Virus record (IMG/VR): IMGVR_UViG_3300007609_000018
Location: 1-63,984 of that record
Strand: one strand, 5' to 3'
DNA: 63,984 bases
DNA from: a virus
Taxonomy: Duplodnaviria > Caudoviricetes
How positions within the stretch are numbered: the first letter of the stretch is position 1; every line of letters begins with the position of its first letter. The position numbers and the translations under genes are program-made. The notes under the pieces are model-generated. The model was not told the origin of the DNA, made no database searches, and saw nothing but the letters and a program-made list of their open reading frames with translations. Below, piece after piece: positions 263 through 60,728 of this stretch.

Positions 263-268
263 ATAAAA

Positions 269-847: not shown

Positions 848-861
848 TTTTTTAATTTAAC

Positions 862-998
862 TACTTACAACAACGTATAAAGTTAATAGCTACTTTAAGC
901 GTGTTTAAGATGTTTATTTATTAATCTAAGTGCACTAGTGTACTTAATTAGGTTAGGTGCCTTAAACACGCTACTAACCTTATACAATTCCGTTACCG
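862..998 (+). repeat. attC-like imperfect inverted repeat #1
   Basis: TACAAC-aac-GTATAAAGTTAATAGC ... GCTACTAACCTTATAC-aattcc-GTTA; two A.C mismatches. Confidence 0.75.
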
Positions 999-7100: not shown

Positions 7101-10100
7101 TTTGTCTTTAAACTTTTGTGTCTTTTCTTTTGGCGATTTAGACATTTTTATTGCTTTCGCCTTTAACCTTTCTATTAACGATTTGTTTTCTTTTGCTAAA
7201 TCAACAACTTCTTTTTTTAGTCCATTTATAGTTTTTTCAAATTGAGTAAGCATTTCTCTTGCTGTTTCTCCTTTTGGACCTACTTTTTGATCAAGTGATT
7301 TTGTATTACTTTCATCTATTTTTCTTGATACTCTTTCTGCAATAGCTATCCCTTGACTTGCATATATTTTACTCATAAACTGAATACCTCTACCTGCTGT
7401 TCTGGCCATTTGGTCGAAAGTGTTTGCTATTGTTTTTTGCTTATTAAGTAGTTCATCAATCTTAGCCATTACGCTAATTTCATTATCTACATTTCTCATA
7501 TCAGATTCTTGAAGTGAATACTGATTCAATGCAGTTCCAAGTATCATAGACCTCATATCAAATGGCATATACTTAGTTTCATCCATTGCTAAAACTACCG
7601 CTTTGTCTATCCCCCCAAGTTGCTCTATTAAAGCATTTCCCATTTCAATAGTTTGCTGATTAGTTTGAACATCGTAATAAAGTCCAACTTCATCTTCTAT
7701 GGATTTTTTTGTTTCTGAACTAATACCTTTTGATAAGTTTACTATTTTATCTATTAATGATTTAGCTCTTTTTTGCAAATTACTATTGTTTGGATTAGAC
7801 GTATCTGGCTCTTTTGGTGGTGTTTTAGAGGGTTCTTTCGATTTAACTTCTTTAGATATTTCATTTCCAGATAACAATTCTGCTGCTGCTAAATCGGTAA
7901 ACTTTTCTAATGTTAAGTCTGCTAATTGCTCTGAACTCATGCTTGTTATTCCTAAAGCATTTTTTACTTTATCAAACAATTCCTTTATATAGGCTTTAAA
8001 TGCGTTCTCTTTGGCTTTTAAAAACTTCGCACCCTTTTCCCCTATTGCTTGTGCTAACGCTTCTTCTAATATGCTTTCCTTGCTATTATTGGCATATACA
8101 GGGTTGTTTCTTACGTCTTTTTCGTATTGAGTTCCTTCTACTAACTCTATCCCTTTATCATATACCTCTTTATGGTTGTTTTTAATGTATTCATTCCAGA
8201 TATGACCGAACTCGTGAATTGGTGTGTCTGTTGTTGCCTTATCTGTGTTTATGAATACTTCTCCATCTTTTACATATCCTAATGGCGGTATCGCTCCTTC
8301 AGTTAATTTTAAATCTTTTGCTATTTCTTCTGAATTTTTGAAGTTTACCTTAATATTCGGAAATGCTTTGTTTAGCACTTTTGTTAGTTTTTCAAGTGCT
8401 TTTTCAGATAGCTTTTGTTCTTTTGATTGTTCTTGGAATGGAACCTCAAAATCATCTACTTGTCCTTGCTCATTTTCGTCTGGCTTTTTGCTTTCATCTT
8501 TCTTTTTGCTTTCAATGCTTTTGCTGCTGCTCGGTAGCACTTCTCTATTGTTGATTCTTCCATGGTTTTTGTTTAAATAGTTATAAAAATAATCGTTTAC
8601 AGGTGGAAATACTGTATCTAAATATTCCTCTGTTTTTTCTGTGTCTAATAATCCATCTTCATTAACAAAGTTTTCAGCTATGTGTGCGTAAAATTCTTGC
8701 TCATAACTTTCAAACTCGTCAATACTTTCAACTGCTTCTTCTAATTCTACATCTTCCTCTAATTGCTCTTCTTTTGCTATTTTTTCTTTTTTAGCTTGTT
8801 TCTCTTTTTCTATTCTTTCCATTGCAGCAATATCCTCTTTAGTGTACTGTTGCTCTTGCTGCATTGTACCTAAATAAGTTTCTATCATTTCTGCTTTAGT
8901 GTTGTGGTTTCTCATTACATCTAATATCTCGTTTCTGTAAACAGAATCGTCTATATCGGTATTATACTCAACACTCTGATCACTTTTAAGACTTTCTATT
9001 AAGTCGTCTATTGTATTACCTTTTCTATTGGTTAATAAGGTCTTCTTCGCACCTGCCTCTTCTGATTTACCTACTTCTCGACCGCTTTTATCTAACCTGC
9101 TGCCTATTCCTAATTCTTGATAGATTTCATTCTTGTCCATTTTACCACCAAATATCAAATATTGAAGTATGTGTTGCAATGGACTTTTAGGTGTATCTGA
9201 ATTTATTTTATCTTTTATTTCATTTTCAATGGTTGCCGAACTTACCGCACCTATCATTTTATTCTCAATAGCTGAAAATTGAGTGTTTTTACCTATTGTT
9301 TTCTTTCCTTTCTTATTGTATTCGGATGTTCTTGATACTTCTTTTCCTGTGTCTTTGTTTTTTATAGTAACAGCTTTACCATCTTTGTTTACACCTACTT
9401 CAAATGTAGCATTTCTATATTCTACTTCTTTGGTTTCTACTACGGTTTCATTTTCTTTTTTAGCTTTTTCTATTCGCTTTTGACGTTCTGTTTTTTGTTC
9501 TTGTATGTCAGATTCTAAATCTTTGGTTTCTTGGCTTACATCGCTTTCCTTTGCCTTTTTTAACTCTTTTTTAGCTTTCTCTACTTCTGCTACAAATGGT
9601 TTTAAACTCTCGGTTGCAGCATCTTGACTTACTCTCTCATCAAATAATTGACCTTTGTTGCTTTTTCTTTCCCCAAACAAGTCTGCTTGATCCTCGTTTA
9701 TCTTTTTACCAAACTCTTTCTTTTTAGCTTCTAACTTTTGTCTTGCTTTAGATAATCTATCTTCTGCTTTAGATATTCTTTCCTCTTTCTGTTTTTGTTC
9801 TGGGGATTTTGTTTTTGGCTTTTCTTCTTCTAATATACCCTCTAAACCTGTTTCTACCTCCGTATCATCATCTAAAATGCCTTCTAATCCTGTTTCTACT
9901 GTTGGTTCAGTTTCTACTTCTGCCTTATTTTCTTCTATTTGCTCGTTTTTAGGCTCTCTAACCATAGTTAAGCCATCTTCTTGCATAACGAACCCATTAT
10001 CTTCATAAAGTTTCTGTAAACGGTCTTTATCGGTATCGGCATCTTCTGGTACTACTTTTAGTTTTATTTGTTTGCCATCTTCATCTGCTGCATCAGTTAG

Positions 10101-13100
10101 CTTTTTTAATGCTTTTTTTGCGTTTCCTCGACCTTTCTCTTTTGACTTGACACTTTCTAAGGTAATTCCGCTTTCATCTTCTGTAAGGATTATTTCTGTG
10201 CCATCTACGTCTAATGCTACACCTCCTTCCATTACATCTTCTATGCTTTCGGATTTACCTATTTTGTCTGCGAATTGTTTTGTTTCACTCGGTTCAGTAT
10301 CTCCAACCGTTTCTTTATCGGTAGTTGATTCAGTTTCTCCTTTAGCGATTTCCTCATCTGCGATTCGCTCAACTTCTTGCTGTTGTTCTGGTGTGTATTC
10401 TTCATATACTTCTTTTAATTTAATTTGATATGCTATTTCTTCGGCAGCTCTACCTCTAAATGTTCTTTTTTCTCCGCTTTCGGTTTCTAATGATACTGAA
10501 TAAGAACCATCTTCTTTTTGAGTAACCGCCATTTCTGGCTTACTAAAATTGTTTTTGTAGGTTTTGCCATTTACTGTAACAGTATTATCTTCTGCTATTT
10601 CAACTTCATCTTGTTTCTGTTGTAATATTCCATATTCTTTTAACTTCTTAGATGATATTTGGTTTTTGTTCCCTAACTCAATTATTTCGTTGCTTGTTTC
10701 AAACACGACTGTTTGTCCATCTAATCTTAATCTTCCTTCTTTACCGTCTTTTTCGTAAACGCTATCTTCATCAATAGATTCTGCAATAGTATTGTTACCG
10801 CCTAAATCATCTACTTCTTTTTCAGACTTTCCTGGAGTGTAATCTTTTTTAGATTGTACATTGAATTTACTTCTTGTGCTTTTTTCTTTTGTTGGCTCAT
10901 CTTCCAATGTTTCCTCAAAACCTGTTTCTGCTTCTTCTTCAGTAGATTGCTCTAATTTTGCTATTTCTGCATCATATTTAGCATTGATTGAATTTCTCTT
11001 GTTTTCAGCTAATTGCCATTTACCGGCACTTACTTTTATATCGAATTGTTCCTTTATTTTTACGGAAACATCCTTTAAAGACATACCACTTTCAAGCCAT
11101 AATTTAATTTTAGCTTGTATTAACTTTAATTCTTTAGCACTTATAAATCCTTTCTCGTATGCTTGTACTGCATCATTTCTTATTTCTTTTGATCCTTGAC
11201 CTACAATAGATAGTTCTCCGTCATTATAGTTCGTTAAATCTTCTTGAATAACTACATCTCCAAATTTCTGCTCTTTTAACTCACCTTCTCTTTCAGCTTC
11301 TATTTTTTCAATAGGAGATTGAGTTTTTTCTTTTTTAGGCTCTATCTTTCCTTTTTCGTTAAGGCCTAATATTTCTTTTTGCTTTTTATCTATTTCAGAT
11401 ATTTTAGCATTGTTTAGTGTTTTTAAATTCTTATCAGCTATTTCTTCGCCTTTCTTTTCTAACTCTGCTCTTTCTTTGCCTAATTCAAAGTATTCAAACT
11501 TTTTATTATCATCTAATTCATTTGGTAGCTGACTTGTAATTTCAGATGCTTCCTTAATGTCTTTTCTTGCTTGTGTAGCTTGTTCTTTGGTTATTTCTTG
11601 TTCTTTCTCTAATTCAGATAATACTTTTAGTGAGTTATCTTTTTTAAACGAACTATTGAATATAAAAGCATTATATCTTTTTTTACTGTTTAATTGGTTT
11701 TGTGTAGCTTCTATTGCACCACCAAAAATTCCCATTGCTGAACCTAATAAAAAGTTATCTCTAGCCTCTCTGTAATCAAATACGTTCTCTACTCTTGTTT
11801 CTGATGATAGGTTGTATGTTCCGGTTACACCCATTTCAGTTAGTTTCTCTAATACAGATTCTTCTAAACCTTCCCCAAAACCATTTTTAATTATAGCACT
11901 ACCATAATTTCTTATTGTGTTTATTGTGGCGTTTTTAAATCCTTCTTTAGCAATACTATTTCTAACTGAATTTTTTGTTATCTCTTTTACAAACTGTGAT
12001 TTAGAACCTTGAATTATTCTAGCCTCCATTCCAAATATCAAGTTGGTTAAACCTATAACTATGGAAACATCGTTTGAATATCTTGAGGCCTCGTCTTTTG
12101 TCATTCCCATTCCAATAGCTTGCTCGTATATGCTTTTTTGCATTTGCGCTGCTATTATTCCTGTTACTGCTGCTTTTGAACCTATTGTAGCTGACTTGCC
12201 TGTTAAACTCAATCCTTTTACCATTCCACTACCACCAACAAACATAGTTCCTAAGTCTGCTAATACATCTAATCCTTGGTCCACAAATTGATTAACATTA
12301 AACTTTTCTTTTGGTTTTGGTTTATTATCATCTGCTAAATACGCATTTTTTACTTCTGTGGCTTTTTCTTCTGATACCGCATACCCATCTTTATCTCTTA
12401 CTGATACTACATCACCTTCTTCGTTGAATAATATTTTAGAATCGCCATAGTCTGCCTCGAAATTAAACATACCTTGCTGAAATCTTGATGATTTAGTGAT
12501 TGTTCTTCTTTCTACATAATCTCTTGACATATCTTGAATGGCATTTGTCCAACCATAAGAAGGTGTGTCGGAGTAACTAAACGCTTGAAATCTATCTACT
12601 AATGAACCTGGCATTTGTAAAAGTCCACCCATTGTTTTTGTTACTGCATTTTGAACCGCTATAAGTGGTTTTGAAAAGAAAAATTCACTTTCTCTACCTT
12701 TTTCCTTAAATCTTTTTTTAAGTTTTTCTTCTCTTGCAGCCGTTTCGTTTTCTATTTTAGTAATGTATTCTTTTGCTAAACTATAATCGTCTTTTTTAAG
12801 CAAGTTTTTAGACGTTTCAATTAATTCTTCTTGTCTTTTTTCTATTTTAAATACATCGTTGAATAAAGGATCACTTTGTAGTTTTTCCAATTCCTTTATT
12901 TCTTCTTCACTTTTGTTTTCTTTCTCAAATAAGTTTGCGTATGCGTTTAAGTTTTTATAATCTATTATCTGCTCTTTTAAATCGTTTAATCGATTAAAAT
13001 TCCATTCGATAGCTTCTTGGTGGTGTAGGTATTTATCTTTATTAGCACCCTGTTCGTCTTTGTCTGTTGCAAAGAAATATTCGCCTCTCTCTCTACTTTT

Positions 13101-13844
13101 TTTAGCGTATTCGTATTTTTCTGGGTTTGTTTCTTTTAGATATTTATTGTAATTCTCTAAGGCGTTTCCACCTATTAAATCTACTTCTTTCTCGTATATA
13201 TCTTTTAGGTTGTTTGCTTTTAGTTGTTTTTCACTTGCTTGTAGTTCAAGTAATGAGTACCCTTTATCAGATGTTTCTTCTTTGGGTTTTTCTTGTATTC
13301 CCATATCTACATTAGTCGTACTTGAATCTAATGTTTCTGGCTTTTTAAACTCACTATAATCTTCCATTCCAATATCCTTTACATTGGATTGTGTTTTATA
13401 GTAATCAGCTTGGTAGTTTAATAAATCAATTTTGCTTTGGTAAGGGTTGTTTTTTCTTTCTTGCCTTTCTTCTTTAAACTGCTCTATTCCTTCTCTTTCT
13501 TCTTTTCTTTGGGTTTCTGAAATATTTGGAACTTGATTTTCGGTAGGTTGCTTATCATCTTCTTTAGGTATTTGATTATTGCTTTCGGTAGATTCCAATT
13601 CTCCAACTTGTGATCCACTTCCACCACTCTCGGATTGTTCTTTTTTTTTTAAGCCGTATTTGTTAAGTATAACCTCTTTTTGCTCTTCGCTTATTGGTTT
13701 ACCTGTCTTTTCTGCAAACTTGTCTAATAACGCACCATAATTACCTTTATACTTGGTTTTAATGCTTTCCTTTTGCTCGTTAGACATAGTTTTGCCTGTC
13801 TTTTCTTCAAAACTGCTTAATAATTGGTCTATATCCTTACTCAT
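4149..13844 (-). CDS. giant virion cargo/ejection protein, large polyvalent type with GNAT and zincin metallopeptidase domains
   Basis: 3231 aa; GNAT-like KGRGNAKKAL...LYEDNGF (~9960-10240); GYVKDGEVFIN...TPIHEFGHIW HExxH (~8200); lies after the tail genes. Confidence 0.7.
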   Translation of the reverse strand: MSKDIDQLLSSFEEKTGKTMSNEQKESIKTKYKGNYGALLDKFAEKTGKPISEEQKEVILNKYGLKKKEQSESGGSGSQVGELESTESNNQIPKEDDKQPTENQVPNISETQRKEEREGIEQFKEERQERKNNPYQSKIDLLNYQADYYKTQSNVKDIGMEDYSEFKKPETLDSSTTNVDMGIQEKPKEETSDKGYSLLELQASEKQLKANNLKDIYEKEVDLIGGNALENYNKYLKETNPEKYEYAKKSRERGEYFFATDKDEQGANKDKYLHHQEAIEWNFNRLNDLKEQIIDYKNLNAYANLFEKENKSEEEIKELEKLQSDPLFNDVFKIEKRQEELIETSKNLLKKDDYSLAKEYITKIENETAAREEKLKKRFKEKGRESEFFFSKPLIAVQNAVTKTMGGLLQMPGSLVDRFQAFSYSDTPSYGWTNAIQDMSRDYVERRTITKSSRFQQGMFNFEADYGDSKILFNEEGDVVSVRDKDGYAVSEEKATEVKNAYLADDNKPKPKEKFNVNQFVDQGLDVLADLGTMFVGGSGMVKGLSLTGKSATIGSKAAVTGIIAAQMQKSIYEQAIGMGMTKDEASRYSNDVSIVIGLTNLIFGMEARIIQGSKSQFVKEITKNSVRNSIAKEGFKNATINTIRNYGSAIIKNGFGEGLEESVLEKLTEMGVTGTYNLSSETRVENVFDYREARDNFLLGSAMGIFGGAIEATQNQLNSKKRYNAFIFNSSFKKDNSLKVLSELEKEQEITKEQATQARKDIKEASEITSQLPNELDDNKKFEYFELGKERAELEKKGEEIADKNLKTLNNAKISEIDKKQKEILGLNEKGKIEPKKEKTQSPIEKIEAEREGELKEQKFGDVVIQEDLTNYNDGELSIVGQGSKEIRNDAVQAYEKGFISAKELKLIQAKIKLWLESGMSLKDVSVKIKEQFDIKVSAGKWQLAENKRNSINAKYDAEIAKLEQSTEEEAETGFEETLEDEPTKEKSTRSKFNVQSKKDYTPGKSEKEVDDLGGNNTIAESIDEDSVYEKDGKEGRLRLDGQTVVFETSNEIIELGNKNQISSKKLKEYGILQQKQDEVEIAEDNTVTVNGKTYKNNFSKPEMAVTQKEDGSYSVSLETESGEKRTFRGRAAEEIAYQIKLKEVYEEYTPEQQQEVERIADEEIAKGETESTTDKETVGDTEPSETKQFADKIGKSESIEDVMEGGVALDVDGTEIILTEDESGITLESVKSKEKGRGNAKKALKKLTDAADEDGKQIKLKVVPEDADTDKDRLQKLYEDNGFVMQEDGLTMVREPKNEQIEENKAEVETEPTVETGLEGILDDDTEVETGLEGILEEEKPKTKSPEQKQKEERISKAEDRLSKARQKLEAKKKEFGKKINEDQADLFGERKSNKGQLFDERVSQDAATESLKPFVAEVEKAKKELKKAKESDVSQETKDLESDIQEQKTERQKRIEKAKKENETVVETKEVEYRNATFEVGVNKDGKAVTIKNKDTGKEVSRTSEYNKKGKKTIGKNTQFSAIENKMIGAVSSATIENEIKDKINSDTPKSPLQHILQYLIFGGKMDKNEIYQELGIGSRLDKSGREVGKSEEAGAKKTLLTNRKGNTIDDLIESLKSDQSVEYNTDIDDSVYRNEILDVMRNHNTKAEMIETYLGTMQQEQQYTKEDIAAMERIEKEKQAKKEKIAKEEQLEEDVELEEAVESIDEFESYEQEFYAHIAENFVNEDGLLDTEKTEEYLDTVFPPVNDYFYNYLNKNHGRINNREVLPSSSKSIESKKKDESKKPDENEQGQVDDFEVPFQEQSKEQKLSEKALEKLTKVLNKAFPNIKVNFKNSEEIAKDLKLTEGAIPPLGYVKDGEVFINTDKATTDTPIHEFGHIWNEYIKNNHKEVYDKGIELVEGTQYEKDVRNNPVYANNSKESILEEALAQAIGEKGAKFLKAKENAFKAYIKELFDKVKNALGITSMSSEQLADLTLEKFTDLAAAELLSGNEISKEVKSKEPSKTPPKEPDTSNPNNSNLQKRAKSLIDKIVNLSKGISSETKKSIEDEVGLYYDVQTNQQTIEMGNALIEQLGGIDKAVVLAMDETKYMPFDMRSMILGTALNQYSLQESDMRNVDNEISVMAKIDELLNKQKTIANTFDQMARTAGRGIQFMSKIYASQGIAIAERVSRKIDESNTKSLDQKVGPKGETAREMLTQFEKTINGLKKEVVDLAKENKSLIERLKAKAIKMSKSPKEKTQKFKDKVAEKYKNISLSVVSSEIQFSAKLTPAQQAFYKAIEASVKEIKRSGDKAKVIKKGMAALKKHQGYKKATKEQKKTIEDAYNNHTDKIFKEADEELTVENRKRELLDEIDFKELIGKHYSNTQKEVQNIVTVLMNEYGLTKSEAKKLNDEITAEVNKTLKPKIEKALINFMGSSRLPSVKRKRKTVLNKMMEAINNGAFTSKLNRELFAYKFNLTNPLTNKQIQRIKELAENVELSRPGSAIETKATRDIAKYITELYPENVVNLVNVFVGLRYASMLSGPFTTVINMWSNAWNYAIAPFSDLLNPTSYFNDKRRNPIQRLFTFRRDANNWANSWNLAVANMIEGTQNYKQIESISRDNKFTISELEREKYNGHRFKLGFFNPYNYARYVGRFLAAQDAFMTNLNFEREMYQNLYDVYSNQGYKGKDLRTMVSNQMAILNTDTDKTKKIQKQADKEFAQYEKLSGKKLSNSEKAIRLQEIIYNNIEDLTEDAKDELMDIAKQQTFTGERNGTVAKFTKLLSTVSNHNIASKLATMNYIPFTTVVGNISEYMLDHAPFYGILRANGLSVSGIYSRSKRVVDGGKFFGGFAENSAMMGERGTRKYEIQMGRAMLGTATLLGLGALFIGRTGEDDDEFYLTGSLKAGTDNYGTQAKEALPAYTLKLPYTPGINFLNIPALSIPLTLIGNYNDLLRKHKADKSISEDEMNLRFAVAAETGRMLWLDATKNTSTMVLDMSILQGVSKLVSEVGTAFRKAEETEESITDTQKNKPFKGLIKNIADMTIGQVGDVLFWNINLKRQIEKIMTGNSYTYQDLKGYMAYKAGINYFVNKPRLDIYGQEVKGFPGDQFINISYYIDRKGKDSENYEVDMFLLNNAAIPNKIKNTAGYYFDENGLEYRYLTEEEHYEYIKLAGEKFLNAPLEITQDGLPKPKWTYMGIKGYMEFTKKPYFKNKKMESRGEPITTIQKDVAKLWQKAKSEAKIELGLK

Positions 13845-35087: not shown

Positions 35088-35921
35088 CTAACTCAAACTC
35101 TGAAAAAAATGCTTAACAACTGTCACAGTCCATCCATTTCCTAAAAGGTTCTTTCTTATATTCTCACTATACCCTTTTGTATAGTCTTTTGGAATACCTT
35201 GCAATAACTCCCAATAACTACTGTTTGCCATATAAAATTCATTGTTTTTTTGGTAAAATATACTTGCAGATGTCGTTTGTCTATTTCCTGTTGATGTTAA
35301 TGTTGGTGCATTTTTCAATTCACTTAAATTATAAGGGTTAAAGAAGTTGGGTAATTTTTTAAACATAGATGTTTTTCTTTTAACAAAAGGAACAGGGTTT
35401 ACTTTATTAAATAATTCACTACTGAACTTAATTGGAATATTCTTTTTTTCATAATCTGTAAACGGTATATTAGTCCAGTAATACCTTGGTCTATTTTGCC
35501 CGGTAAAATACTTAGAGTTTATTTTTATTGGCTCAACACCTAATTTCTCGTTAATAATATTTAGCCATTCTTTTTTCATAGAAACATTTTCTAAAAAAAA
35601 ATATTTAGGTTTTAAAAATTCTTTTGCCTTTACAAACTCAAAAAACAACTTACTTCTTTTGTCGTAAAAATTTAATTGTTTACCAATACTACTAAACCCT
35701 TGACAGGGACTTCCACCTATTAATAAATCAATTTTTGGTAATTTATTTAATTTAGCAGAACAAACATCCCCCATTTGTTTGGTGCTTGGGTAATTTCTCA
35801 AAGTTACTTCTATCGCTTTTTTATCTATTTCATAAGCAAAATAATTATCTATTTTTATATTTAATTTGTCTAAAGCAATTTGCCCACAACTGATTCCATC
35901 AAAATAGCTTACTACATTCAT
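35088..35921 (-). CDS. DNA (cytosine-5)-methyltransferase
   Basis: SYFDGI, GGSPCQGFS, LENV, QNRPRYYW, LGNGW motifs. Confidence 0.92.
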   Translation of the reverse strand: MNVVSYFDGISCGQIALDKLNIKIDNYFAYEIDKKAIEVTLRNYPSTKQMGDVCSAKLNKLPKIDLLIGGSPCQGFSSIGKQLNFYDKRSKLFFEFVKAKEFLKPKYFFLENVSMKKEWLNIINEKLGVEPIKINSKYFTGQNRPRYYWTNIPFTDYEKKNIPIKFSSELFNKVNPVPFVKRKTSMFKKLPNFFNPYNLSELKNAPTLTSTGNRQTTSASIFYQKNNEFYMANSSYWELLQGIPKDYTKGYSENIRKNLLGNGWTVTVVKHFFQSLS

Positions 35922-35979
35922 TTTATTTATGTTTTATTTGCCCTCGTACATCACGCAGGGCGGTTTTAAAAAATTACAG

Positions 35980-36078
35980 ACAGGTAACAATGTATATAAA
36001 AAATAGCTACTTTCAGTTGTCAAGTAATCCTTAACAACTGCTCTTTTATATCGCTACTTTACATACACAATAAAGTTT
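35980..36078 (+). repeat. attC-like imperfect inverted repeat #2
   Basis: GGTAAC-aat-GTATATAAAAAATAGC ... GCTACTTTACATACAC-aataaa-GTT. Confidence 0.7.
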
Positions 36079-36147
36079 AAAAACACAGAGGCAATTCAAC
36101 AACCTAAACCAAACTTTAAAAAAACATGACGAAAAACCGCCCCTGTG

Positions 36148-51271: not shown

Positions 51272-51499
51272 CTATTTAATTTTGTTCTTAAAATAACGCT
51301 CTAAGGCGATTGAAATAATAAACCCTATACCAAATATGCCTAAGTGTATAATAACCTCTCTAAACTTAATTAAAGTGCCAAATACATGGTAAGAAGTGTT
51401 TGCTGCAATTACAATAAATATCTGTACTGCAAATAATACCTTGAATATCTTGCATACTAAATATTTTTGAGTGTAATATTCTATCTGTTCTGGTTTCAT
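51272..51499 (-). CDS. small 2-TM membrane protein
   Basis: two hydrophobic segments. Confidence 0.55.
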   Translation of the reverse strand: MKPEQIEYYTQKYLVCKIFKVLFAVQIFIVIAANTSYHVFGTLIKFREVIIHLGIFGIGFIISIALERYFKNKIK

Positions 51500-52602
51500 A
51501 ACTTTAGTTTTTTAATTATTTTTGCTAATACGTTTACAACTATACTATTACCTGCTTGTATATACATTTGAGTATTGCTACAAGGTATTTTGAATGTATC
51601 TGGAAAGTCCATTAGTCTGAAACACTCTCTTGGTGTTAATCTTCTCACCTTGTTTTCTATTAAATACTGTCCTGCTTTATCATTGCAATTTCCACCACTT
51701 CCCATAAGTGTCCTGCCAATTGTTGTAGAGCTGTAAATCCTTCTACTAAAATCGTTATATTTTTCATTAGGCAACATACCGATAACTTTTAATTCAATTG
51801 AATTGTCAGTAGGGCATAATGCACCATTTGCTCTTAAAGCATTTGCAACATCATCTTCTGTTTTAGGTTGCCATTTAAACCCAGTTCCTTTTTTTTCGTG
51901 TCGGTCTTTATGATTTATAAATCCTTTTATCAATGTTTCACTCAAAAAATACTTTTCATCAACATCATCTTCTAAAACATCTTTTAGTCTTTTTGTTAAT
52001 GGAAATGGTTTTGGAAAGCTAAAGACATTATCCTTATCATCACGTATTCCAATTATAAACACTCGTTCTCGGTTTTGTGGAACTCCATAGTCTTTTGCAT
52101 TTAAAACTCTATGGTATATATGATATGGTACTGAATCTTCTCTCGGAAATATTATAGGATTTCCATTTACACTCTTTCCGCCTAACATATCTATCCACGT
52201 ATTAAAAGTTTTACCATAAGTAGCGTTCTTGTATTTCTTGTTATCTGAAAGCAATCCTTTTACGTTCTCAAATATGAAAAATCTTGGTTTGTTTACTTTT
52301 ATAAATTCGTGGCTATTGTAAAACAATATTCCTCTTTTATCATCTTCTCCACCACGTTTACCGGCTAAACTGAAACTTTGACATGGAGGCGATGTAACGT
52401 ATATATCTAAAGGTTTGGCAGGAATTTCTCTGTCATAAACATTCAAAGGATAGTATGCAGGCTCTCCATAATTTTCTATATATGTCTGTCGTGCATACTT
52501 ATCCATATCACAAGCAAAAATTGTTTTAAACTTTATGCCTAATCTCATCAATGCTTGTTCAAATGCCCCTACTCCAGAAAAATCACTACCTACTTCAATC
52601 AT
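51496..52602 (-). CDS. DNA (cytosine-5)-methyltransferase
   Basis: FSGVG, SPPCQSFS, FENVKG, PQNRERVF, RRLTPREC, QAGNSI motifs. Confidence 0.95.
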   Translation of the reverse strand: MIEVGSDFSGVGAFEQALMRLGIKFKTIFACDMDKYARQTYIENYGEPAYYPLNVYDREIPAKPLDIYVTSPPCQSFSLAGKRGGEDDKRGILFYNSHEFIKVNKPRFFIFENVKGLLSDNKKYKNATYGKTFNTWIDMLGGKSVNGNPIIFPREDSVPYHIYHRVLNAKDYGVPQNRERVFIIGIRDDKDNVFSFPKPFPLTKRLKDVLEDDVDEKYFLSETLIKGFINHKDRHEKKGTGFKWQPKTEDDVANALRANGALCPTDNSIELKVIGMLPNEKYNDFSRRIYSSTTIGRTLMGSGGNCNDKAGQYLIENKVRRLTPRECFRLMDFPDTFKIPCSNTQMYIQAGNSIVVNVLAKIIKKLKL

Positions 52603-52797: not shown

Positions 52798-53883
52798 TTA
52801 ATTTTCTTTTATAAATGTTACTAAATCTTTTATTTCTTGTATAGTTGCTTGCTCGTAGAAATCTCTTGCATTTTCATACTTTAATCCTATTGTTGCAATA
52901 GCGGTTTCTATTTGGTCCTTGTCTTTTATATCTATGCCTTTTAAAGCATTGTATATTGACATATACTCTTTTTTATCTCGAACTACTCCTTCAGTAAGTT
53001 TTAAATCATCTATAAAAGATAAATCAATGACTTCTTCAAACTCTGCATCTTCTACTTGGTTCTTCTTGTCAATCTTTTCAGTTCCTCTCTTGATTACGTT
53101 TTCTACATCTTTTGCAGTTGATTCATTGGTTTTAATCTTTTTACCACCACGTTCTATCATTTCATCTTTTGGATCTGCTTCATCTACTAAATTCATTAAC
53201 TGTCCAACTCTATCTGCGTGTGCTGTGTTTTTAGGCAATACTTTCCAAAGAAGTCTTATCCCTGTTTTCTTAATCATCTCCCCTAAGTGTACTCCTGTCC
53301 AAAGTGAATTGTTTTTATTACTCTTGTAAGATTGAGATGTATTTCTAATTTCCCATATTCTTTCAATTGGTGTAAATAAACATTGCTTTGTTCCATCACT
53401 AAGTAAACAAGTTGCTAATACACCATACTCTTTGCCTCTTTTGCTTGCACTAAGTCCTTTAGCGTAATATGGTTTATATTTTATTAAATCATCAAAAGCG
53501 TAATCATATTCAAAATCATCGTTTTCATAAATAACGTGAGCATTTGGTTTTTTTGCTATACCTAATACTTCCATCATTGTAATTAATCCTTTGTAGTCTG
53601 GGTCAAGGCAACACTCAACTACTTTTCCTTTTTTTCTTGGAACTAAGTGCGCTTGTTGCAGTACAGGATTCAAACTTAATCCAGATAGTGCTACGTTAAG
53701 TATAGCCTTTTTTGCACTCTCTGGTGTGCAGCTTGCTAAATAACTGTTTGATTGAAACGCCTGTAAAGCATACCCAACTTCTTTCTTAAATGCTATTTGC
53801 GTTTCTTTAGGCAAATAACTTACAAATTCTCTTTTTACATCTTCTGATGCAATTTCACTCTTTAATTTTACTATGTTACTCAT
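52798..53883 (-). CDS. recT: RecT-family single-strand annealing protein
   Basis: GLSLNPVLQQAHLVPR...YKGL...W...EMIKKTGIR....LP. Confidence 0.85.
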   Translation of the reverse strand: MSNIVKLKSEIASEDVKREFVSYLPKETQIAFKKEVGYALQAFQSNSYLASCTPESAKKAILNVALSGLSLNPVLQQAHLVPRKKGKVVECCLDPDYKGLITMMEVLGIAKKPNAHVIYENDDFEYDYAFDDLIKYKPYYAKGLSASKRGKEYGVLATCLLSDGTKQCLFTPIERIWEIRNTSQSYKSNKNNSLWTGVHLGEMIKKTGIRLLWKVLPKNTAHADRVGQLMNLVDEADPKDEMIERGGKKIKTNESTAKDVENVIKRGTEKIDKKNQVEDAEFEEVIDLSFIDDLKLTEGVVRDKKEYMSIYNALKGIDIKDKDQIETAIATIGLKYENARDFYEQATIQEIKDLVTFIKEN

Positions 53884-53934: not shown

Positions 53935-53965
53935 TTTATCTTTTGTATATTTTATAGTTAGCTAC
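53935..53965 (+). other. attI-like cassette boundary site
   Basis: TTTTGTATATTTTATA-GTTAGCTAC; near-complement of GTGGCTAAC 54165-54173. Confidence 0.5.
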
Positions 53966-54152
53966 AATTATCCAACGCACGTTCTATCGTGTAAAAACCT
54001 AACCTATCACCATTTACTATTTTCCTGCATTTAGTTTCAAAATCCCTCTCGTCTTGCCCTAACACAATATAACCGCTGAACTCTCTCACTATTGGTGCTT
54101 TGTGCTTTACGTTATTAATTGCTTGTTCAATTTGTTTATCTGTATATGCCAT
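53958..54152 (-). CDS. hypothetical cassette protein
   Basis: 64 aa; stop codon is the TAA of the boundary core. Confidence 0.6.
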   Translation of the reverse strand: MAYTDKQIEQAINNVKHKAPIVREFSGYIVLGQDERDFETKCRKIVNGDRLGFYTIERALDNCS

Positions 54153-54164
54153 AGCTCTTTAAAA

Positions 54165-54260
54165 GTGGCTAACACAAAATATAGTGAATAGCCGATTAAA
54201 CATTTATTTCAATAGCCAAGTTTTAGGTGTCGGCTACTCACCATACATTCAACGTTATAA
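54165..54260 (+). repeat. attC-like imperfect inverted repeat #4
   Basis: GCTAAC-acaaaa-TATAGTGAATAGCCG ... CGGCTACTCACCATA-cattcaac-GTTATAA. Confidence 0.75.
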
Positions 54261-54803
54261 AAACTTTTCTATTTGTTTATATTGTGCCGTTTTCATTCCT
54301 GCATGTGCTATTGCTATACAATCGCAAATATGCTCCATTCTTGCTTTAATTAAATCGCCTTTCTTATTCCTTTCATAAGGAAAGTTTGGATAATTAGTTT
54401 CTACCCACTTCATCATATCGTCTTTACTTGCATTTATTCTTCCAACAGTAGCTTTTTTTACCTCCGTTGGTGTTACTTGTATTGCATCTGGCTTTAATAA
54501 TGCTATAAACGCACAACTCAACCCGTAGCTTTTCATGCCGTTTGAACTTTGACTTCCACTTGGTGTTTCTGCAAATGTAATAATTGGCTTGATTTCTTCT
54601 GTTTTAGCGAATATCTCGTCTATTACTTGCTTGGCTCTAGATACTGTGTCAGAACTTGCTCTAATCTGCTTATTTTTAGTTTTTTCAGTTTTAACTAAAC
54701 TCCAATCTTGAGGTACAAACTTACCATTCTCTATTACACCCCAAACAAATCCTGTATTTGCCATACTAGGGTCTATTACTAAAACTCTTGTTTCTTTACT
54801 CAT
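54255..54803 (-). CDS. ruvC: RuvC-like Holliday junction resolvase
   Basis: VIDPSMANTG, FAETP, TPTEVKKA...ASKDDM, EHICDCIAIA. Confidence 0.8.
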   Translation of the reverse strand: MSKETRVLVIDPSMANTGFVWGVIENGKFVPQDWSLVKTEKTKNKQIRASSDTVSRAKQVIDEIFAKTEEIKPIITFAETPSGSQSSNGMKSYGLSCAFIALLKPDAIQVTPTEVKKATVGRINASKDDMMKWVETNYPNFPYERNKKGDLIKARMEHICDCIAIAHAGMKTAQYKQIEKFL

Positions 54804-55907: not shown

Positions 55908-56210
55908 TCATTTCCCTTTAAAATCGTTTCTAATTACTACTCCTTGTGATTCCTCAAACATATAAATTATACAATACTTTGTATCTTCTGGATATGTCTT
56001 TGGTAATAATGAATTTAATTTACCTATTCTTCTTATAGGCCCTTCGTAAATTATCTTTTTTGGTTTTGGTACTCCATTATTGCTACAAGTGCCATCTTTT
56101 ACTAACCAATTTATAGGTTTACTTAGTCCTAAAAACTTTATTGTTTGTTTATATTCTCCTACTATTTGTGTTCTCATCTTCCTACTGTTTAAACCATTCT
56201 TTAAAATCAA
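55908..56210 (-). CDS. hypothetical protein
   Basis: ORF in operon. Confidence 0.5.
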   Translation of the reverse strand: MILKNGLNSRKMRTQIVGEYKQTIKFLGLSKPINWLVKDGTCSNNGVPKPKKIIYEGPIRRIGKLNSLLPKTYPEDTKYCIIYMFEESQGVVIRNDFKGK

Positions 56211-57291
56211 CTGTATCTAATAGTTCTTTCACTAATGTTTCTGGTGGACAGTCTTTTATTCGGTTGTTTAGTTGTAATTTTCCATATCTGTTTTTCTTAT
56301 TGTCTATTCTACCACCTTCAGATATGTCTAAATCATCAAACCTTAACTCTTCTAACTCTATCATTTCTTTTGCTATCAAGTTCTTTACTTCCAATTCTCT
56401 TGATTTACATTCTTTTGAAATTTCATTTAAGCATTTCCACTTGTAAGCTAATTCTAAATGCTCGTGTGTTCCAATACCCCAATCCGGATCAGTTCTATAT
56501 CTTTCACTCATAAATTGCTTATAAGTTTCCGTATTGTCTGGGTCCGGTTCTAATTTCTGAATACCACTTGGAGTGTCTTGATTTACAAATGAAACATATC
56601 CTTCTTCTTTTGCTATCTCTTTTGCAGGTAATACTTTGTCATACCAAAATCTTTTAGAAATGTCTATAATTTTGTTTTTAAGGGATTTTATTCCATCACT
56701 ATCGCCTGGTATCGGAAATGTTTTAAAGTTTCTTAGATTGTCAAATATTACTGTTTCTGCGTAATCTAACTCAAAGATTATCATTCCTTGTGTTGGTTGT
56801 GCAATATATTCTGGTGGTATTCCATCTTCCCACTTATTTAAAGCAAATGAATTGGCTGTTTTAATCTCTAATACAGATTCTTTTTCTTCTACCTCACCTG
56901 TGGCTAAGTTTACACTTCCCTTATTCATTAATCTGTCAATAGAGTAAAATAGCCATGGATAATCTGGATTAACTGCATATCCATTTATCTTTCTACACCT
57001 TCGGATTATTTTACCTTCATTGAAGTTTTCAATATATCCATCTTCCGTTCCATCTATGTATTGCCAAATGTTAGCTATCATATCTTCCATTTGCCTACCC
57101 CAAAATAAATGTTGGTTATCCTTTAGTGGTTTTAAAACACCTATCTTCTCATAGAACACTTCTACTGCTGATTTATAAGGGTTTAATCCTAACATAGCAC
57201 TTATGTCTGAACCACCTATGCCGTTTAGCCTAAACTCATACCATTCTCGACTATGGGTTTCTATTCTGTGTATTTGTATTTTACTTTTCAT
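56182..57291 (-). CDS. YqaJ/lambda-exonuclease-family recombinase nuclease
   Basis: W...R.NGIGGSD..A.LGLNPYKS, WG..ME, SIDR, LEIKT, Y.AQ motifs. Confidence 0.9.
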   Translation of the reverse strand: MKSKIQIHRIETHSREWYEFRLNGIGGSDISAMLGLNPYKSAVEVFYEKIGVLKPLKDNQHLFWGRQMEDMIANIWQYIDGTEDGYIENFNEGKIIRRCRKINGYAVNPDYPWLFYSIDRLMNKGSVNLATGEVEEKESVLEIKTANSFALNKWEDGIPPEYIAQPTQGMIIFELDYAETVIFDNLRNFKTFPIPGDSDGIKSLKNKIIDISKRFWYDKVLPAKEIAKEEGYVSFVNQDTPSGIQKLEPDPDNTETYKQFMSERYRTDPDWGIGTHEHLELAYKWKCLNEISKECKSRELEVKNLIAKEMIELEELRFDDLDISEGGRIDNKKNRYGKLQLNNRIKDCPPETLVKELLDTVDFKEWFKQ

Positions 57292-57350
57292 ATTTTTCTA
57301 TATTTTCAAACTATATTTTTTTGATTATAAATACTTTATAGTTTGGTTGG

Positions 57351-57377
57351 GTTGTTTATATTCAGATGTTACCTGCC
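57351..57377 (+). other. attI-like cassette boundary site
   Basis: GTTGTTTATATTCAGAT-GTTACCTGCC; 57368-57377 is the exact complement of GGCAGGTAAC 57591-57600. Confidence 0.65.
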
Positions 57378-57378
57378 A

Positions 57379-57645
57379 TTATACAGCAGACAGGCTATTC
57401 CAAGTTTTTAATATTGTGAACTTATACCAAGCTCTATCAAAATAATAGCCTTTCTTTGCAAGTATAAGTTCAATCAAATGTTGTTCGGCTTCTTTTTCAG
57501 TTTCAAACCCTTCTTTAGGTTGTTCATCAATCGTTTTCACATCTCTACTACCAATATTTCCAACTTGGTAATAAACGTAAATAAAATAACGGCAGGTAAC
57601 AGCACCTATATTCAATAGCGGTTTTTGTGGTTCATTTGAGTTCAT
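57379..57645 (-). CDS. hypothetical cassette protein, start codon inside attC-like site
   Basis: N-terminal MNSNEPQKPLLNIGAV is encoded by the hairpin. Confidence 0.6.
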   Translation of the reverse strand: MNSNEPQKPLLNIGAVTCRYFIYVYYQVGNIGSRDVKTIDEQPKEGFETEKEAEQHLIELILAKKGYYFDRAWYKFTILKTWNSLSAV

Positions 57646-57725
57646 ATTTTCTAATTTAATTTTGTGAATAATTCAAGTTTTGTACTTCTAAGTTCGCAAC
57701 TAAATATAGCTGCGAACCGTTATAG
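57591..57725 (+). repeat. attC-like imperfect inverted repeat #5
   Basis: GGTAAC-agcac-CTATATTCAATAGCG ... CGCAACTAAATATAG-ctgcgaacc-GTTATAG. Confidence 0.75.
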
Positions 57726-58085
57726 GTCATTCATCTCCCAACCTTTACAGCTTGCAATTTTATTTGAAAGAGCAAGAATTTCATCGGTGTTGTAAACCAC
57801 ATAAAGTGCGTCATCTTCAAATAAGCCATCACGCTGACCGCATTCAAAGTCAAGTTTAAATTCAGTTTTTTCTTTTTGGCCTTTATCGAGTATATCAAAA
57901 AAATTACCATAAGAATTTGCATCAACATTTCCAATTAAATCTTCATAAAAAAAGTCTATTGGCTCATCTCCATTAAAAATCGTATCATTCTTAATTTTAA
58001 GCCCTGTAAAAATACAAGGTTCATATTTTGAATAAAGCGTTCCACTTGGGAGTTTATAAAATTCTTGTTTAGTAACTATTCTCAT
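57720..58085 (-). CDS. hypothetical cassette protein
   Basis: 121 aa, bounded by GTTATAGG 57719 and CCTATAAT 58104. Confidence 0.65.
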   Translation of the reverse strand: MRIVTKQEFYKLPSGTLYSKYEPCIFTGLKIKNDTIFNGDEPIDFFYEDLIGNVDANSYGNFFDILDKGQKEKTEFKLDFECGQRDGLFEDDALYVVYNTDEILALSNKIASCKGWEMNDL

Positions 58086-58101
58086 TATTTCTAAGTAAAA
58101 C

Positions 58102-58233
58102 GCCCTATAATAAAGTGTATAGCAAATTGTGGGCGTGTTACAGTTTGCTACTTTGTACCTTTAACTTAATGCTTTGCAAGCTGTTAGGTAGATACTTTTA
58201 ATCCCACAACTTGCCATATTCAAATCGTTACCC
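58102..58233 (+). repeat. attC-like imperfect inverted repeat #6 (AAC core changed to AAT)
   Basis: CTATAAT-aaagtg-TATAGCAAATTGTGGG ... CCCACAACTTGCCATA-ttcaaatc-GTTA. Confidence 0.75.
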
Positions 58234-58239
58234 GTAATA

Positions 58240-58653
58240 CTATCTACGGAATAATCTAACACCGTCTACTTCTTCAAAATCTAAATCTCTTACTTTGCTT
58301 AAAACAGAATTTCCAAATTCAGAAAGTTTATCGTACAATTCCTTTAAGCGATTTTCATCCTCTCTATTATCACATAATTCTACCCATCTTCTTATAAGTT
58401 CTCTGTTTAATTCTGGGTGGTTTAATGAGTTGTTTTTAAGTTTATGAAATTCTGCACTCCAATATGCTACCGTATCGCTTATTTGTTTTACTTTCATTTC
58501 AAGTGGGTAGCATCTATCGCTTACATCACTACTTACTAACCTAAGCACTCCATCACTAACACTTGTAATTCTGTTTTCCTCTGTTTCCATTATTTGTTGA
58601 AGTTTGAAATCACAGAAACACCAATCTTCTTTTTTAAACTTTAAATTTTTCAT
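58240..58653 (-). CDS. hypothetical protein
   Basis: 137-aa ORF between the two arrays. Confidence 0.65.
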   Translation of the reverse strand: MKNLKFKKEDWCFCDFKLQQIMETEENRITSVSDGVLRLVSSDVSDRCYPLEMKVKQISDTVAYWSAEFHKLKNNSLNHPELNRELIRRWVELCDNREDENRLKELYDKLSEFGNSVLSKVRDLDFEEVDGVRLFRR

Positions 58654-58669
58654 CTGTTATATTTTTTAA

Positions 58670-58697
58670 GTTGTTTATTATTAGATTTTAGCAGTAA
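58670..58697 (+). other. degenerate attI-like boundary site
   Basis: GTTGTTTATTATTAGAT-TTTAGCAGTA versus GTTGGCAGTA expected from the complement of 58973-58982. Confidence 0.4.
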
Positions 58698-58700
58698 TAG

Positions 58701-59033
58701 CTACTCACTACCGTTAAACCTTAGTGGTTGCTTACCCAATAGTGCAATCATTTCTTCGGTTCGTTTCTCGTTATACTCTTGGTATTCTTTAGGTGTCATT
58801 AACTTATAACCATCGCTTTCAAATACTTGAAACCTTTTTCGTAGTTTCTTATTAATCCAAGAGTAATAACGTTCCCAACTATCTAAATCTCTTGGCTTAA
58901 ACATATCTCCTGCCGTATCAATATCGTCAAGTAATTCCCAAAGAAATTCGGCTTGCTTTCTGTCAATTTTACTACTGCCAACAACAGGTGTAGTGCATTG
59001 CTCTGTTTTGTTCTTTTTGCTATCGTCTTTCAT
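58701..59033 (-). CDS. hypothetical cassette protein, start codon inside attC-like site
   Basis: N-terminal MKDDSKKNKTEQCTTPVV is encoded by the hairpin. Confidence 0.6.
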   Translation of the reverse strand: MKDDSKKNKTEQCTTPVVGSSKIDRKQAEFLWELLDDIDTAGDMFKPRDLDSWERYYSWINKKLRKRFQVFESDGYKLMTPKEYQEYNEKRTEEMIALLGKQPLRFNGSE

Positions 59034-59106
59034 TTATCTAGATTTAAGTGTTACTAATTAAGTTCGTGCTGTAAGGTTGTCACACACCATACCCAAAACG
59101 TTATAC
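58974..59106 (+). repeat. attC-like imperfect inverted repeat #7
   Basis: GCCAAC-aaca-GGTGTAGTGCATTGC ... GTCACACACCATACC-caaaac-GTTATAC. Confidence 0.6.
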
Positions 59107-59112
59107 TCAACG

Positions 59113-60171
59113 TTACTTTTCTATATGAGCAACAACCTTATCAATCAAAGCATTTACATCTGAATACATCTTTTGATTCTTCTTTGATTTAAAAGAATAT
59201 TTTGTTTTTAATTCTAATAAATCTGCTTTCAAGTCTGCTACCTTTTCAATGTCGCCTTTTGATAGTTCTAGTTGCCTTGCTTTTTCTTCTTCTGCCAACC
59301 TATCCTTTTCTTGTTGTTCTTTGGCTTTTAACTTAGCTGCTAACTCGTCTTTTGCTTTCTGTTCAGCTTCAAGTTTGGCTTTGTTTTCAGCATCTATTTT
59401 GGCTTGTTTTGATCTTTCTTCTTCTTGCTGTTGTTTTAATTTTTCATTTTCTTCTCTGATTCTTTCTTGCTCAAAATCATAGGCCTCTTTTTCAGACTTT
59501 AATTCCTTTAGTTTAGATTGAAATTCATCTTCAGACATTTCTCTTAAATCTAAATCTTCGTATAAAAAATTAAAATAAGGTCTTAATAATACTTGTCTTG
59601 AATGGCTTAACTCAGTTTTCTCACGTTCTATCCTTTCTTGTTCTAATCTATCTTCTTCTGCTTTCTTAATTGCAGCTTGTTCATCTTCCCATGCCGTTTT
59701 CTTTGCACTTAAATACGCTTGCCATACATCTTCTTCCATTGCTGATAAATTGCGCTCTGCTGCATCTTCTAAGTACGGCTCTAATTCAGATACTCTTTTT
59801 TGTTGAAGTTTGTCTAAACGCTCTTTTTCAAGGTTTTCATAGTAGTTCTCAATTTCAGATAGCTTTTCTTCCATTTGCACTACCGGTTCTGTTAGTTTAT
59901 TTTTAATTGCATCAACAAACTTTCCTGCTTGTAAAAAGTATTGCTTTTCTACCTTATGGATTTTAGCTACACCTGTTCTAACTTTTACAAGTTTCTTTCT
60001 TAATTCAGATGCTTTTCCTACTAAATCTTCTGATATTTCAGCATTAATTATTTCAGCATACACTTTTTCATACCCTTTCTTTTCTTCTATTTTAGGAAAG
60101 AATGATTGCTCTATGCTTATTGCTTTTTCTGGTTGCAAATTAAAATCTTCGTGTTTTACTATTTGTGTCAT
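59113..60171 (-). CDS. coiled-coil protein (DUF1351-like, recombination-module associated)
   Basis: A..LR..LVKVRT...K..K...L..GKFVD...LTEP...ME..L; long E/K-rich coil. Confidence 0.55.
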   Translation of the reverse strand: MTQIVKHEDFNLQPEKAISIEQSFFPKIEEKKGYEKVYAEIINAEISEDLVGKASELRKKLVKVRTGVAKIHKVEKQYFLQAGKFVDAIKNKLTEPVVQMEEKLSEIENYYENLEKERLDKLQQKRVSELEPYLEDAAERNLSAMEEDVWQAYLSAKKTAWEDEQAAIKKAEEDRLEQERIEREKTELSHSRQVLLRPYFNFLYEDLDLREMSEDEFQSKLKELKSEKEAYDFEQERIREENEKLKQQQEEERSKQAKIDAENKAKLEAEQKAKDELAAKLKAKEQQEKDRLAEEEKARQLELSKGDIEKVADLKADLLELKTKYSFKSKKNQKMYSDVNALIDKVVAHIEK

Positions 60172-60190
60172 CTTTTTTGTGTTTTAAATG

Positions 60191-60394
60191 TTATTTAATT
60201 GGTTTCCAAACCACAATCATTTGTGGTCCTGTAATATCTATTTTCATTCCGTTTTCATATTCTACTGAATACAGAACTTCGTTAATTTCTCTTTCGTAAT
60301 ATTTGTCAATACTTTTAACACCTTCTACTCCTACTTCATATCGTCTGTACTGTCCACAAATTTGTGTTTCCACTTGATGTATATATCTACTCAT
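60191..60394 (-). CDS. hypothetical protein
   Basis: 67-aa ORF. Confidence 0.55.
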   Translation of the reverse strand: MSRYIHQVETQICGQYRRYEVGVEGVKSIDKYYEREINEVLYSVEYENGMKIDITGPQMIVVWKPIK

Positions 60395-60728
60395 CGTTTC
60401 TATTTATCATTTTATCTAATTCGTTTAATTTCTTGATATTTAAAATGTAGTGTTTTATGCCACCTACCCTATCTATTTTGACAAACCCCCTATCCTTTAA
60501 CATCTTTACATTATAATGATATGTTGGTCTTTTACATCTAAAGTATGAGAAGAAATCATCGGTTGGTTTCATTCCTTCAGATAAACTCTTTAGCATATCC
60601 ATAGATAATTGATTTGTAAGGCATTTTAGATCACTTTCTAAATCTACAACATCTGTCATTCTAATTTTAATATCCGTTCCTGTACCGTCTTTGTAGGTAA
60701 GGTTTTTATCTAATAGTGTTCTTGCCAT
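60387..60728 (-). CDS. winged-helix DNA-binding protein
   Basis: RPTYHYNVKMLKDRGFVKIDRVG..KHYILN, ArsR-like wHTH. Confidence 0.55.
   Translation of the reverse strand: MARTLLDKNLTYKDGTGTDIKIRMTDVVDLESDLKCLTNQLSMDMLKSLSEGMKPTDDFFSYFRCKRPTYHYNVKMLKDRGFVKIDRVGGIKHYILNIKKLNELDKMINRNDE

Follow-up and report, generated by a model that had tools for sequence, protein, structure and literature searches.

Element #5, on the minus strand of a complete virus record of 63,984 nt (the whole stretch of DNA analysed, hereafter the window), is with a probability of roughly 0.6 one copy of a widespread attC-like inter-cassette element of phages of Flavobacteriia-type hosts, in which the ORFs are reversed and the site at the same time provides 5' UTR, start codon and N-terminal leader. 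On the sense strand, which throughout is the minus strand of the window, the element reads YAAC|G, about 4 nt, the 5' arm of a helix P1, an A-rich loop, the 3' arm of P1 and T-GTT|R. Copies of it separate small accessory ORFs, each enclosed within its own 15-bp inverted repeat P2 (GTTA-N5-AGT ... ATT-N5'-TAAC). Such an element may act as an attC read with the ORF reversed, i.e. as a folded, strand-biased recombination site, and because it is located 5' of its ORF it would also be a 5' UTR. In leader-type copies (#5 and #7) the loop would supply the start codon, with the 3' arm, the GTT box and the P2 half-site being translated as leader. In a circularised cassette P2 and P1 could stack into one long imperfect hairpin, and exchange would take place at the conserved AAC/GTT boxes.

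Structure and gene neighbourhood of element #5

Element #5 and the 88-aa ORF behind it comprise the following features.

57582-57728, minus strand: element #5 (YAAC|G, helix P1, A-rich loop with ATG and leader, T-GTT|A)
57719-57722, minus strand: TAAC left boundary, its TAA being the stop codon of a 121-aa ORF (57720-58085)
57694-57713, minus strand: P1 5' arm GCAGCTATATTTAGTTGCGA, which also folds on itself as a local hairpin (57691-57718)
57643-57645, minus strand: loop ATG, the sole in-frame ATG of the 88-aa ORF
57602-57621, minus strand: P1 3' arm, translated as leader codons P9-A15
57586-57600, minus strand: GTT junction codon V16 (57598-57600) and P2 5' half GTTACCTGCCGTTAT
57368-57382, minus strand: P2 3' half ATAATGGCAGGTAAC, which contains the stop codon of the 88-aa ORF and terminates in TAAC
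57379-57645, minus strand: 88-aa ORF, consisting of a 16-residue leader and a body with a weak Arm-DNA-bind_4 match

In sense order the element runs ..GAC CTA TAA C|G GTTC, 5' arm, A-rich spacer, ATG, 3' arm, T and GTT, and the body of the 88-aa ORF begins |ACC TGC CGT TAT.. right after this GTT (57600-57598). The TAAC at the left is of the boundary type where recent homology blocks stop. As an earlier reading of the letters alone (the sequence-only reading) had proposed, ORF 57379-57645 starts in the loop of hairpin #5 and reads through its arm, the ATG at 57645 being placed between the arms 57694-57713 and 57602-57621. Gene structure and the calls of GenBank annotators in two isolates suggest that the loop ATG is the start actually used. 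The orientation of the cassette ORFs relative to their site, described in the same reading as opposite to that of usual integron cassettes, was likewise found, with the site lying 5' of the ORF.

The arms of element #5 are Watson-Crick complementary at 15 of 19 positions, and model R1, a covariance model built from the #5 family, scores the element at 152 bits. Folding of the window copy (146 nt) gave a z score of -2.14, with 7 of 200 shuffles folding equally well, as compared to -4.76 and 0 of 200 for the rival local hairpin at 57691-57718. On the window copy alone element #5 is marginal, and it is convincing only via its relatives. A z score of only -2.14, 33 inverted-repeat pairs in 1.9 kb and a window-wide scan for GTT..AAC inverted pairs that found no enrichment (7 versus 6.0 expected, the scan being too loose) would all suit a chance inverted repeat in AT-rich intergenic DNA. 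The probability of this explanation is negligible, as it is refuted by comparison, namely by the 47 stretches that carry the 18-mer of the 3' arm, by the covariation in P1 and P2 and by the arrays that the elements form. An Rfam search of positions 56000-60500 with E up to 1 returned no family.

The region lies on the minus strand within a replication/recombination block, which includes a primase and the following genes.

52798-53883: RecT-like protein
56182-57291: YqaJ exonuclease
35088-35921 and 51496-52602: two DNA methyltransferase genes
57292-57367, minus strand: spacer between the last cassette and the YqaJ exonuclease gene, without an element, its start resembling 238-255

One further ORF of the block appears from its translation to encode a DnaB-like helicase. 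Weak DNA similarity points to phages of Flavobacteriia; with the YqaJ protein as bait no related loci were retrieved. Model R1 has a weak match at 35970-36085 (E 0.017), near the methyltransferase gene 35088-35921, and a single ORF of 3231 aa (4149-13844, minus strand) is of unusual length in a phage of 64 kb. In two arrays similar sequence follows the last cassette (57353-57370 and 238-255, minus strand; AAC-AT/AA-CTGAATA..AAACA), a statistically weak similarity that may mark a terminal or attI-like site. The sequence-only reading had the cassette ORFs point toward an attI-like site; the motif recurs in the window, and its signal is weak, with 3 matches versus 0.73 expected and 4 of 100 shuffles equalling it.

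Distribution of the element and its fusion to unrelated ORFs

Searching with the 88-aa protein led to a locus, L005, that matched residues 1-17 only; the same block of about 125 nt is flanked there by another upstream gene and another ORF body. Exact matches to the 18-mer of the P1 3' arm were obtained in 47 IMG/VR stretches and to the 20-mer of the 5' arm in 50. Aligned in register, the copies resemble each other from TAACG through GCTGTT and are unrelated beyond, the apparent conservation of the arms being inflated by a sampling that was anchored on these exact 18- and 20-mers. An in-frame ATG is located upstream of the 18-mer in 45 of 48 copies (window included), at a distance of 30 nt (10 copies), 42 nt (16) or 45 nt (19); of the remaining three, one lies within a longer ORF and two have no ATG. 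ORF bodies fused to the leader are always joined after GCTGTT, and a looser anchor yielded 55 distinct fused bodies. One block standing in frame ahead of 55 distinct ORF bodies argues for the hairpin being a portable start-and-leader module, in line with the sequence-only reading, and homologues that keep these N-termini without the hairpin were not seen. A Pfam scan of ten fused bodies gave DUF4326 for one, sub-threshold matches for two (one Lar-like, one DUF1804) and nothing for seven. In the protein of L014 the DUF4326 domain starts directly behind the leader, at residue 25. A special case is found at 4759-5595 of L012, where the leader codons (..EQLNIGAVISS..) are inside a 279-aa ORF and the upstream ORF reads across the whole element into the next body.

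The element is also present in isolated phages. In Flavobacterium phage hemulen6-1 the loop ATG is the annotated start of the methyltransferase gp014, a copy occurs in F. psychrophilum phage 2A, and gene 67 of Polaribacter phage Freya has only the leader in common with the 110-aa ORF of the window. A covariance model run over 64 loci (580,540 bases) gave 266 matches at E up to 0.001, a minority of which are weaker opposite-strand echoes, and revealed dense arrays, in which as many as 13 same-strand matches fall into 4 kb; a 5-kb part of hemulen6-1 contains 10. Across many phages the similarity of the element is about 90%. Polaribacter phage P12002L contains 8 model R1 matches (E up to 0.1), several of them in intergenic gaps by methyltransferase genes. 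In the phage collection neither the 88-aa protein (tblastn) nor element #5 (blastn) found a match; a type-II copy from L023 as query matched Flavobacterium phages in the same collection. An alignment-based scan of viral contigs brought no additional loci. Genome contigs with the 18-mer amounted to 26 stretches, and only L074, L081, L087 and L095 carry the element, the other 22 having matched unrelated genes by chance. The majority of loci come from metagenome assemblies, in which assemblers may misjoin contexts across repeats. In the portion of the literature available to us, no description of the element was found beyond a report on integrase-less attC clusters (CALINs; Qi et al. 2023), and the accessible portion of the hemulen phage paper (PMC7077304) mentions no hairpins, cassettes or stem-loops and uses 'repeat' in its methods only.

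Related arrangements were observed in a few loci. Short hairpins with stems GTTR..YAAC, or flanked by TAACGTTTT..TGTTA, occur in L004/L118 (~3220-3330), L062 (~5104-5160) and L108 (~560-600); their 11-nt loop is always TCGTTTTAATG or ACGTTTTAATG, and by their letters they look like 'empty cassettes' or minimal elements. At ~2960-3260 of L004 (= L118) a leaderless homologue of the 88-aa gene with its own ATG lies inside the element loop, in the order TAACGTTTT-GCGTATATGAG..ORF..CTTATATACGC-TGTTA, a topology opposite to that of the window cassette.

Helix P1 and the leader

In 59 aligned copies 92.3% of the P1 cells are paired and 13 of the 20 pairs vary on both sides, values that 0 of 500 shuffles reach and that compare to 28-45% pairing in slid registers; these figures lean high because the copies are related and were found by exact words from the arms. 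The helix is kept with different letters in the isolates hemulen6-1 and 2A and in copies L009, L069 and L107. It contains a G-G mismatch that is constant in 44 of 59 copies as well as two constant wobbles, and its connectors are asymmetric, the 5' one measuring about 5 nt (GTTTT) and the 3' one 1 nt (T). Depending on the copy, AAATTAGAAAA either forms part of the coding sequence or precedes the ATG, which points to a constraint on nucleotides rather than on the peptide.

As judged from the aligned copies, the leader sequence (..PQLNIGAV-x-x-S) is set by base pairing and not by peptide function. Short N-terminal sequences on unrelated small phage proteins are known from the internal proteins of T4, where they form a capsid-targeting leader. 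A leader that is common to at least 55 unrelated small proteins, and that directly precedes DUF4326 in L014, might similarly be a functional signal peptide, the shared N-terminus (..NEPQKPQLNIGAV..S) serving as targeting or processing tag with the DNA conservation being secondary. This is highly improbable given that the residues conserved best coincide with those that the P1 3' arm encodes and co-vary with the non-coding 5' arm (LNIGAV to LNIPVV), that the start codon is found at three different places in otherwise homologous DNA, that a coding leader is lacking in three of the five window elements, and that one and the same body occurs behind leaders of several kinds or without any. Unlike in the T4 capsid-targeting leader, the shared residues follow a covarying nucleic-acid helix and many copies are non-coding.

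The cassette-specific inverted repeat P2

The first 16 nt of a body (GTT-A-N5-AGT-nnn) are the reverse complement of the last 16 nt of the same ORF (nnn-ATT-N5'-TAAC), the TAA of the TAAC often being the stop codon. In 59 cassettes the mean complementarity is 13.1 of 16, with at least 13 in 43 of them, as compared to a mean of 9.06 and at least 13 in 22 of 3288 for mismatched start/end pairs; for the flanks across the element the mean is 9.1. Like in cassettes with an attC site, the start of the cassette is thus complementary to the box past its own ORF rather than to the neighbouring site (13.1 versus 9.1). YAAC and GTTR (positions 1-4) are nearly invariant, helix 1 being 97.9% paired, and the positions beyond them are freely variable without an RYYY/RRRY pattern and covary over 15 bp. 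At the variable positions 3-4 types of Watson-Crick pairs occur, and position 11 is a constant G.T in 44 of 45 cassettes.

Three constant wobbles of G.U type, two in P1 and one in P2, stand on the sense strand only, every significant match in the window is on the transcribed strand, the P1 loop consists of 54% A, and the 3' half of P2 includes the stop codon. An A-rich loop suits the initiation of translation without a Shine-Dalgarno sequence, as in Bacteroidota. All this could indicate that the element is primarily an RNA device, with P1 showing the start codon in an open A-rich loop, P2 pairing the 5' end of the cistron with the stop codon to serve RNA processing, stability or the control of translation, and mobility being secondary. 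We consider such a primary role improbable, as it leaves the DNA breakpoints at the boxes and the duplicated units with unrelated flanks unexplained and as a helix around up to ~850 nt of ORF (the hemulen methyltransferase) would be unusual for an mRNA control element. An RNA device and a DNA recombination site are not exclusive of each other, the constant sense-strand wobbles being as compatible with an RNA helix as with a site in single-stranded DNA, and the element likely has a dual role in DNA and RNA. Outside the constant positions GT/TG and AC/CA occur 26 to 17 times in P1 and 9 to 5 times in P2, rendering the strand test indecisive.

Recent breakpoints at YAAC|G

Breakpoints were identified by all-against-all megablast of the loci (at least 95% identity over at least 250 nt) as positions where homology stops inside both partners. 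This resulted in 34 distinct contexts, partly reciprocal views of the same events, 19 of which are no more than 6 nt away from YAAC|G or C|GTTR, versus 3.8% of random positions; a looser boundary motif accounts for 24 of the 34, versus 22.3%. Inspection of the 34 contexts by eye located none at the GTT between leader and body. Units that extend from AACG to TAAC between unrelated flanks show 100% identity (951, 291 and 285 nt) or 98% identity (474 nt), and one such pair sits within a single 64-kb contig. As all mapped recent breakpoints are at the YAAC|G end, element and ORF appear to move as one unit in recent events. Since the box is constant, the breakpoints at sense YAAC|G (antisense C|GTTR) do not reveal the exact crossover bond. 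Circular cassettes or empty sites were not seen. The only run matching the window, possibly the source of this DNA, consists of assembled contigs and showed no joints, and no RNA run was listed as matching. A second contig of that run, 1107 nt long, has the 31-mer 58097-58127 of element #6, which it flanks on either side with sequence of its own that comprises a further TAACGG boundary and the start of another ORF.

Gene exchange around short conserved elements has a precedent in the PeSLs (Comeau et al. 2014, PMC4122927), promoter/stem-loop cassettes that Arbiol and colleagues reportedly described in T4-type phages in 2010. Both types of element are short conserved composite motifs that lie between accessory genes in plastic regions and act as exchange points between otherwise unrelated sequences. 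The present element might accordingly be a PeSL-like regulatory cassette, i.e. a terminator/promoter unit that is shuffled by homologous recombination between copies, via the phage's own recombination proteins, here RecT and YqaJ, in the way proposed for phages of T4 type. Its size of ~100-150 nt and its position beside small non-essential ORFs agree with this, the window encodes both a RecT-like protein (52798-53883) and a YqaJ exonuclease (56182-57291), and crossovers inside elements could have placed different variants of the same element family ahead of the same body (L060, L006, L042). We nevertheless regard a PeSL-like origin as unlikely. The identical units stop exactly at YAAC|G with no homology beyond on either side (L057/L059, L062/L066, L062/L065), leaving nothing for homologous exchange to pair with, and homologous recombination does not explain inverted repeats that are specific for each cassette. 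A scan of 57200-59300 for sigma-70-type promoters, which does not cover Bacteroidota promoters, gave 7 versus 8.0 expected and no intrinsic terminator. Unlike PeSLs, which combine a promoter with a terminator and act by homologous recombination, the element has precise junctions without flanking homology, lacks promoter and terminator matches, is accompanied by cassette-specific inverted repeats and carries a coding leader in some copies.

Probable older leader swaps at GTT

Homologues of the 88-aa protein (n = 37) fall into 26 with at least 15 residues before the body and 11 with N-termini of up to 10 residues (e.g. MRYY.., MKYY..). The 26 long leaders end in ..QLNIGAV (1), ..S[CFY]LGAV (5), ..A[LQ]RKTDV (3), ..ALTIPVV (11) or others (6), i.e. 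at least four recurring kinds plus singles, and most are joined at V|TCRY. In several metagenome and viral loci the body DNA keeps GTT|ACCTGCCGT and both P2 halves, with single-base changes in L113 and L115. The bodies are 82-95% identical, as compared to 27-78% for the upstream elements and ~47-64% for unrelated sequence in the same alignment; the downstream elements also differ. P2 is absent from those homologues with short N-termini that were inspected in DNA (three of five readable to the stop codon). As the same body stands behind different leader elements at the same GTT, the GTT box seems to be an exchange junction as well, on a longer time scale. Recombination at GTT that creates N-terminal fusions, as envisaged in the sequence-only reading, is consistent with these older leader swaps, whereas the recent breakpoints that could be mapped are all at YAAC|G.

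Other elements of the window

In the window the covariance model yields five significant copies, each of them on the gene strand. The four besides element #5 are as follows.

58093-58236, minus strand: element #6, no loop start codon; 47.5 bits, E 8.7e-8
58203-58218 with 58118-58133, minus strand: P1 of element #6
58100-58111, minus strand: P2 5' half of element #6, pairing with 57719-57728; the ORF ATG (58085) is downstream
58964-59109, minus strand: element #7, leader MKDDSKKNKTEQCTTPVV; 31.3 bits, E 2.6e-4 with the #5-family covariance model
59031-59033 and 58980-58982, minus strand: ATG and junction GTT of element #7
58967-58982 and 58687-58700, minus strand: P2 5' half and decayed P2 3' half of element #7
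54155-54263, minus strand: further element, no loop start codon, followed by a 64-aa cassette; 44.3 bits, E 4.3e-7
54161-54173 with 53957-53969, minus strand: P2 of the preceding element
853-1001, minus strand: further element, no loop start codon, followed by a 192-aa cassette; 41.8 bits, E 1.5e-6
858-871 with 253-266, minus strand: P2 of the preceding element

Elements #5 and #7 have an ATG in the loop and encode leaders that make up the first 16-18 codons of their ORFs. In the other three (853-1001, 54155-54263 and 58093-58236) the loop is non-coding and the ORF uses its own ATG after the GTTA half-site, so that the claim of a start codon supplied by the hairpin holds for two of the five window elements. 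For ORF 58701-59033, which had been assigned a start in hairpin #7, the ATG is indeed inside a related element, but the helix is poor in the window copy (fold z +1.77; 9 of 24 modelled pairs non-standard). A site in Polaribacter phage Freya matches element #7 with 75% identity across 131 nt. The 352-aa ORF that abuts element #7 ends in ..AAG TAA CGT TGA GTA TAA CG (59092-59112, minus strand), placing two TAACG boxes 12 nt apart.

Comparison with integrons

As in integron cassettes, arrays of small ORFs lie between imperfect hairpin sites bounded by 5'-..YAAC ... GTTR..-3', the cassette begins with bases complementary to the box on the other side of the ORF, exchange points appear to be at the AAC/GTT box, and the cargo includes DNA methyltransferases. 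Complementarity between cassette start and far box is the classic evidence for the G|TT crossover of integrons. Further traits shared with attC are an imperfect hairpin with an unpaired spacer and mismatched bases that mark the strand, here the covarying P1 with its G-G mismatch, wobbles and asymmetric connectors. Chromosomal integrons of Vibrio contain highly alike sites, the Vibrio repeats, which the ~90% likeness of the element across phages resembles. Unlike in integrons, the ORF is reversed, rendering the site 5' of the ORF and translatable, the box complementarity extends over 15 bp instead of 7, the window has no intI, clear attI or Pc promoter, and both ends of the element apparently are exchange points over time.

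Neither a tyrosine recombinase (PF00589) nor a Y1 transposase (PF01797) is present in the window or in P12002L, and PF00589 was above cut-off in 3 of 5 other records. As the window has no PF00589, the system resembles a CALIN and not a complete integron, and the recombining enzyme may come from the host. The precise junctions and the helices suggest that exchange is site-specific and dependent on single-stranded structure. More tentatively, and with the odds against it, both boxes (YAAC|G and GTT|R) may be exchange points of an integrase-less cassette system of Flavobacteriia phages whose folded site is a translated leader, a host or phage enzyme acting on single-stranded DNA. CALINs have been reported in virulent phages, including attC clusters in Polaribacter phage P12002L, one of which, P12002L_attC2, was recombined by IntI1 (Qi et al. 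2023, PMC9892861); the model R1 elements of that genome may include these sites.

Implications

If true, these findings would explain the swapping of accessory genes in these phages, which encode methyltransferases, restriction-alleviation-like proteins and mostly ORFans, and would describe a recombination site that, through its base-pairing rules, dictates part of a protein sequence. Integron-like cassette biology would be extended to virulent phages of a phylum with few known integrons. Isolates that carry the system, namely Flavobacterium phages hemulen, sniff and snork and Polaribacter phages Freya and P12002L, could be used to study the genesis and mobility of cassettes. For annotation it would follow that N-termini shared among the ORFans of these phages reflect the element and not protein homology. 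If both boxes exchange, in-frame N-terminal chimeras would arise and captured ORFs would be re-equipped with a 5' UTR and a start codon, the elements forming a natural modular cloning system.
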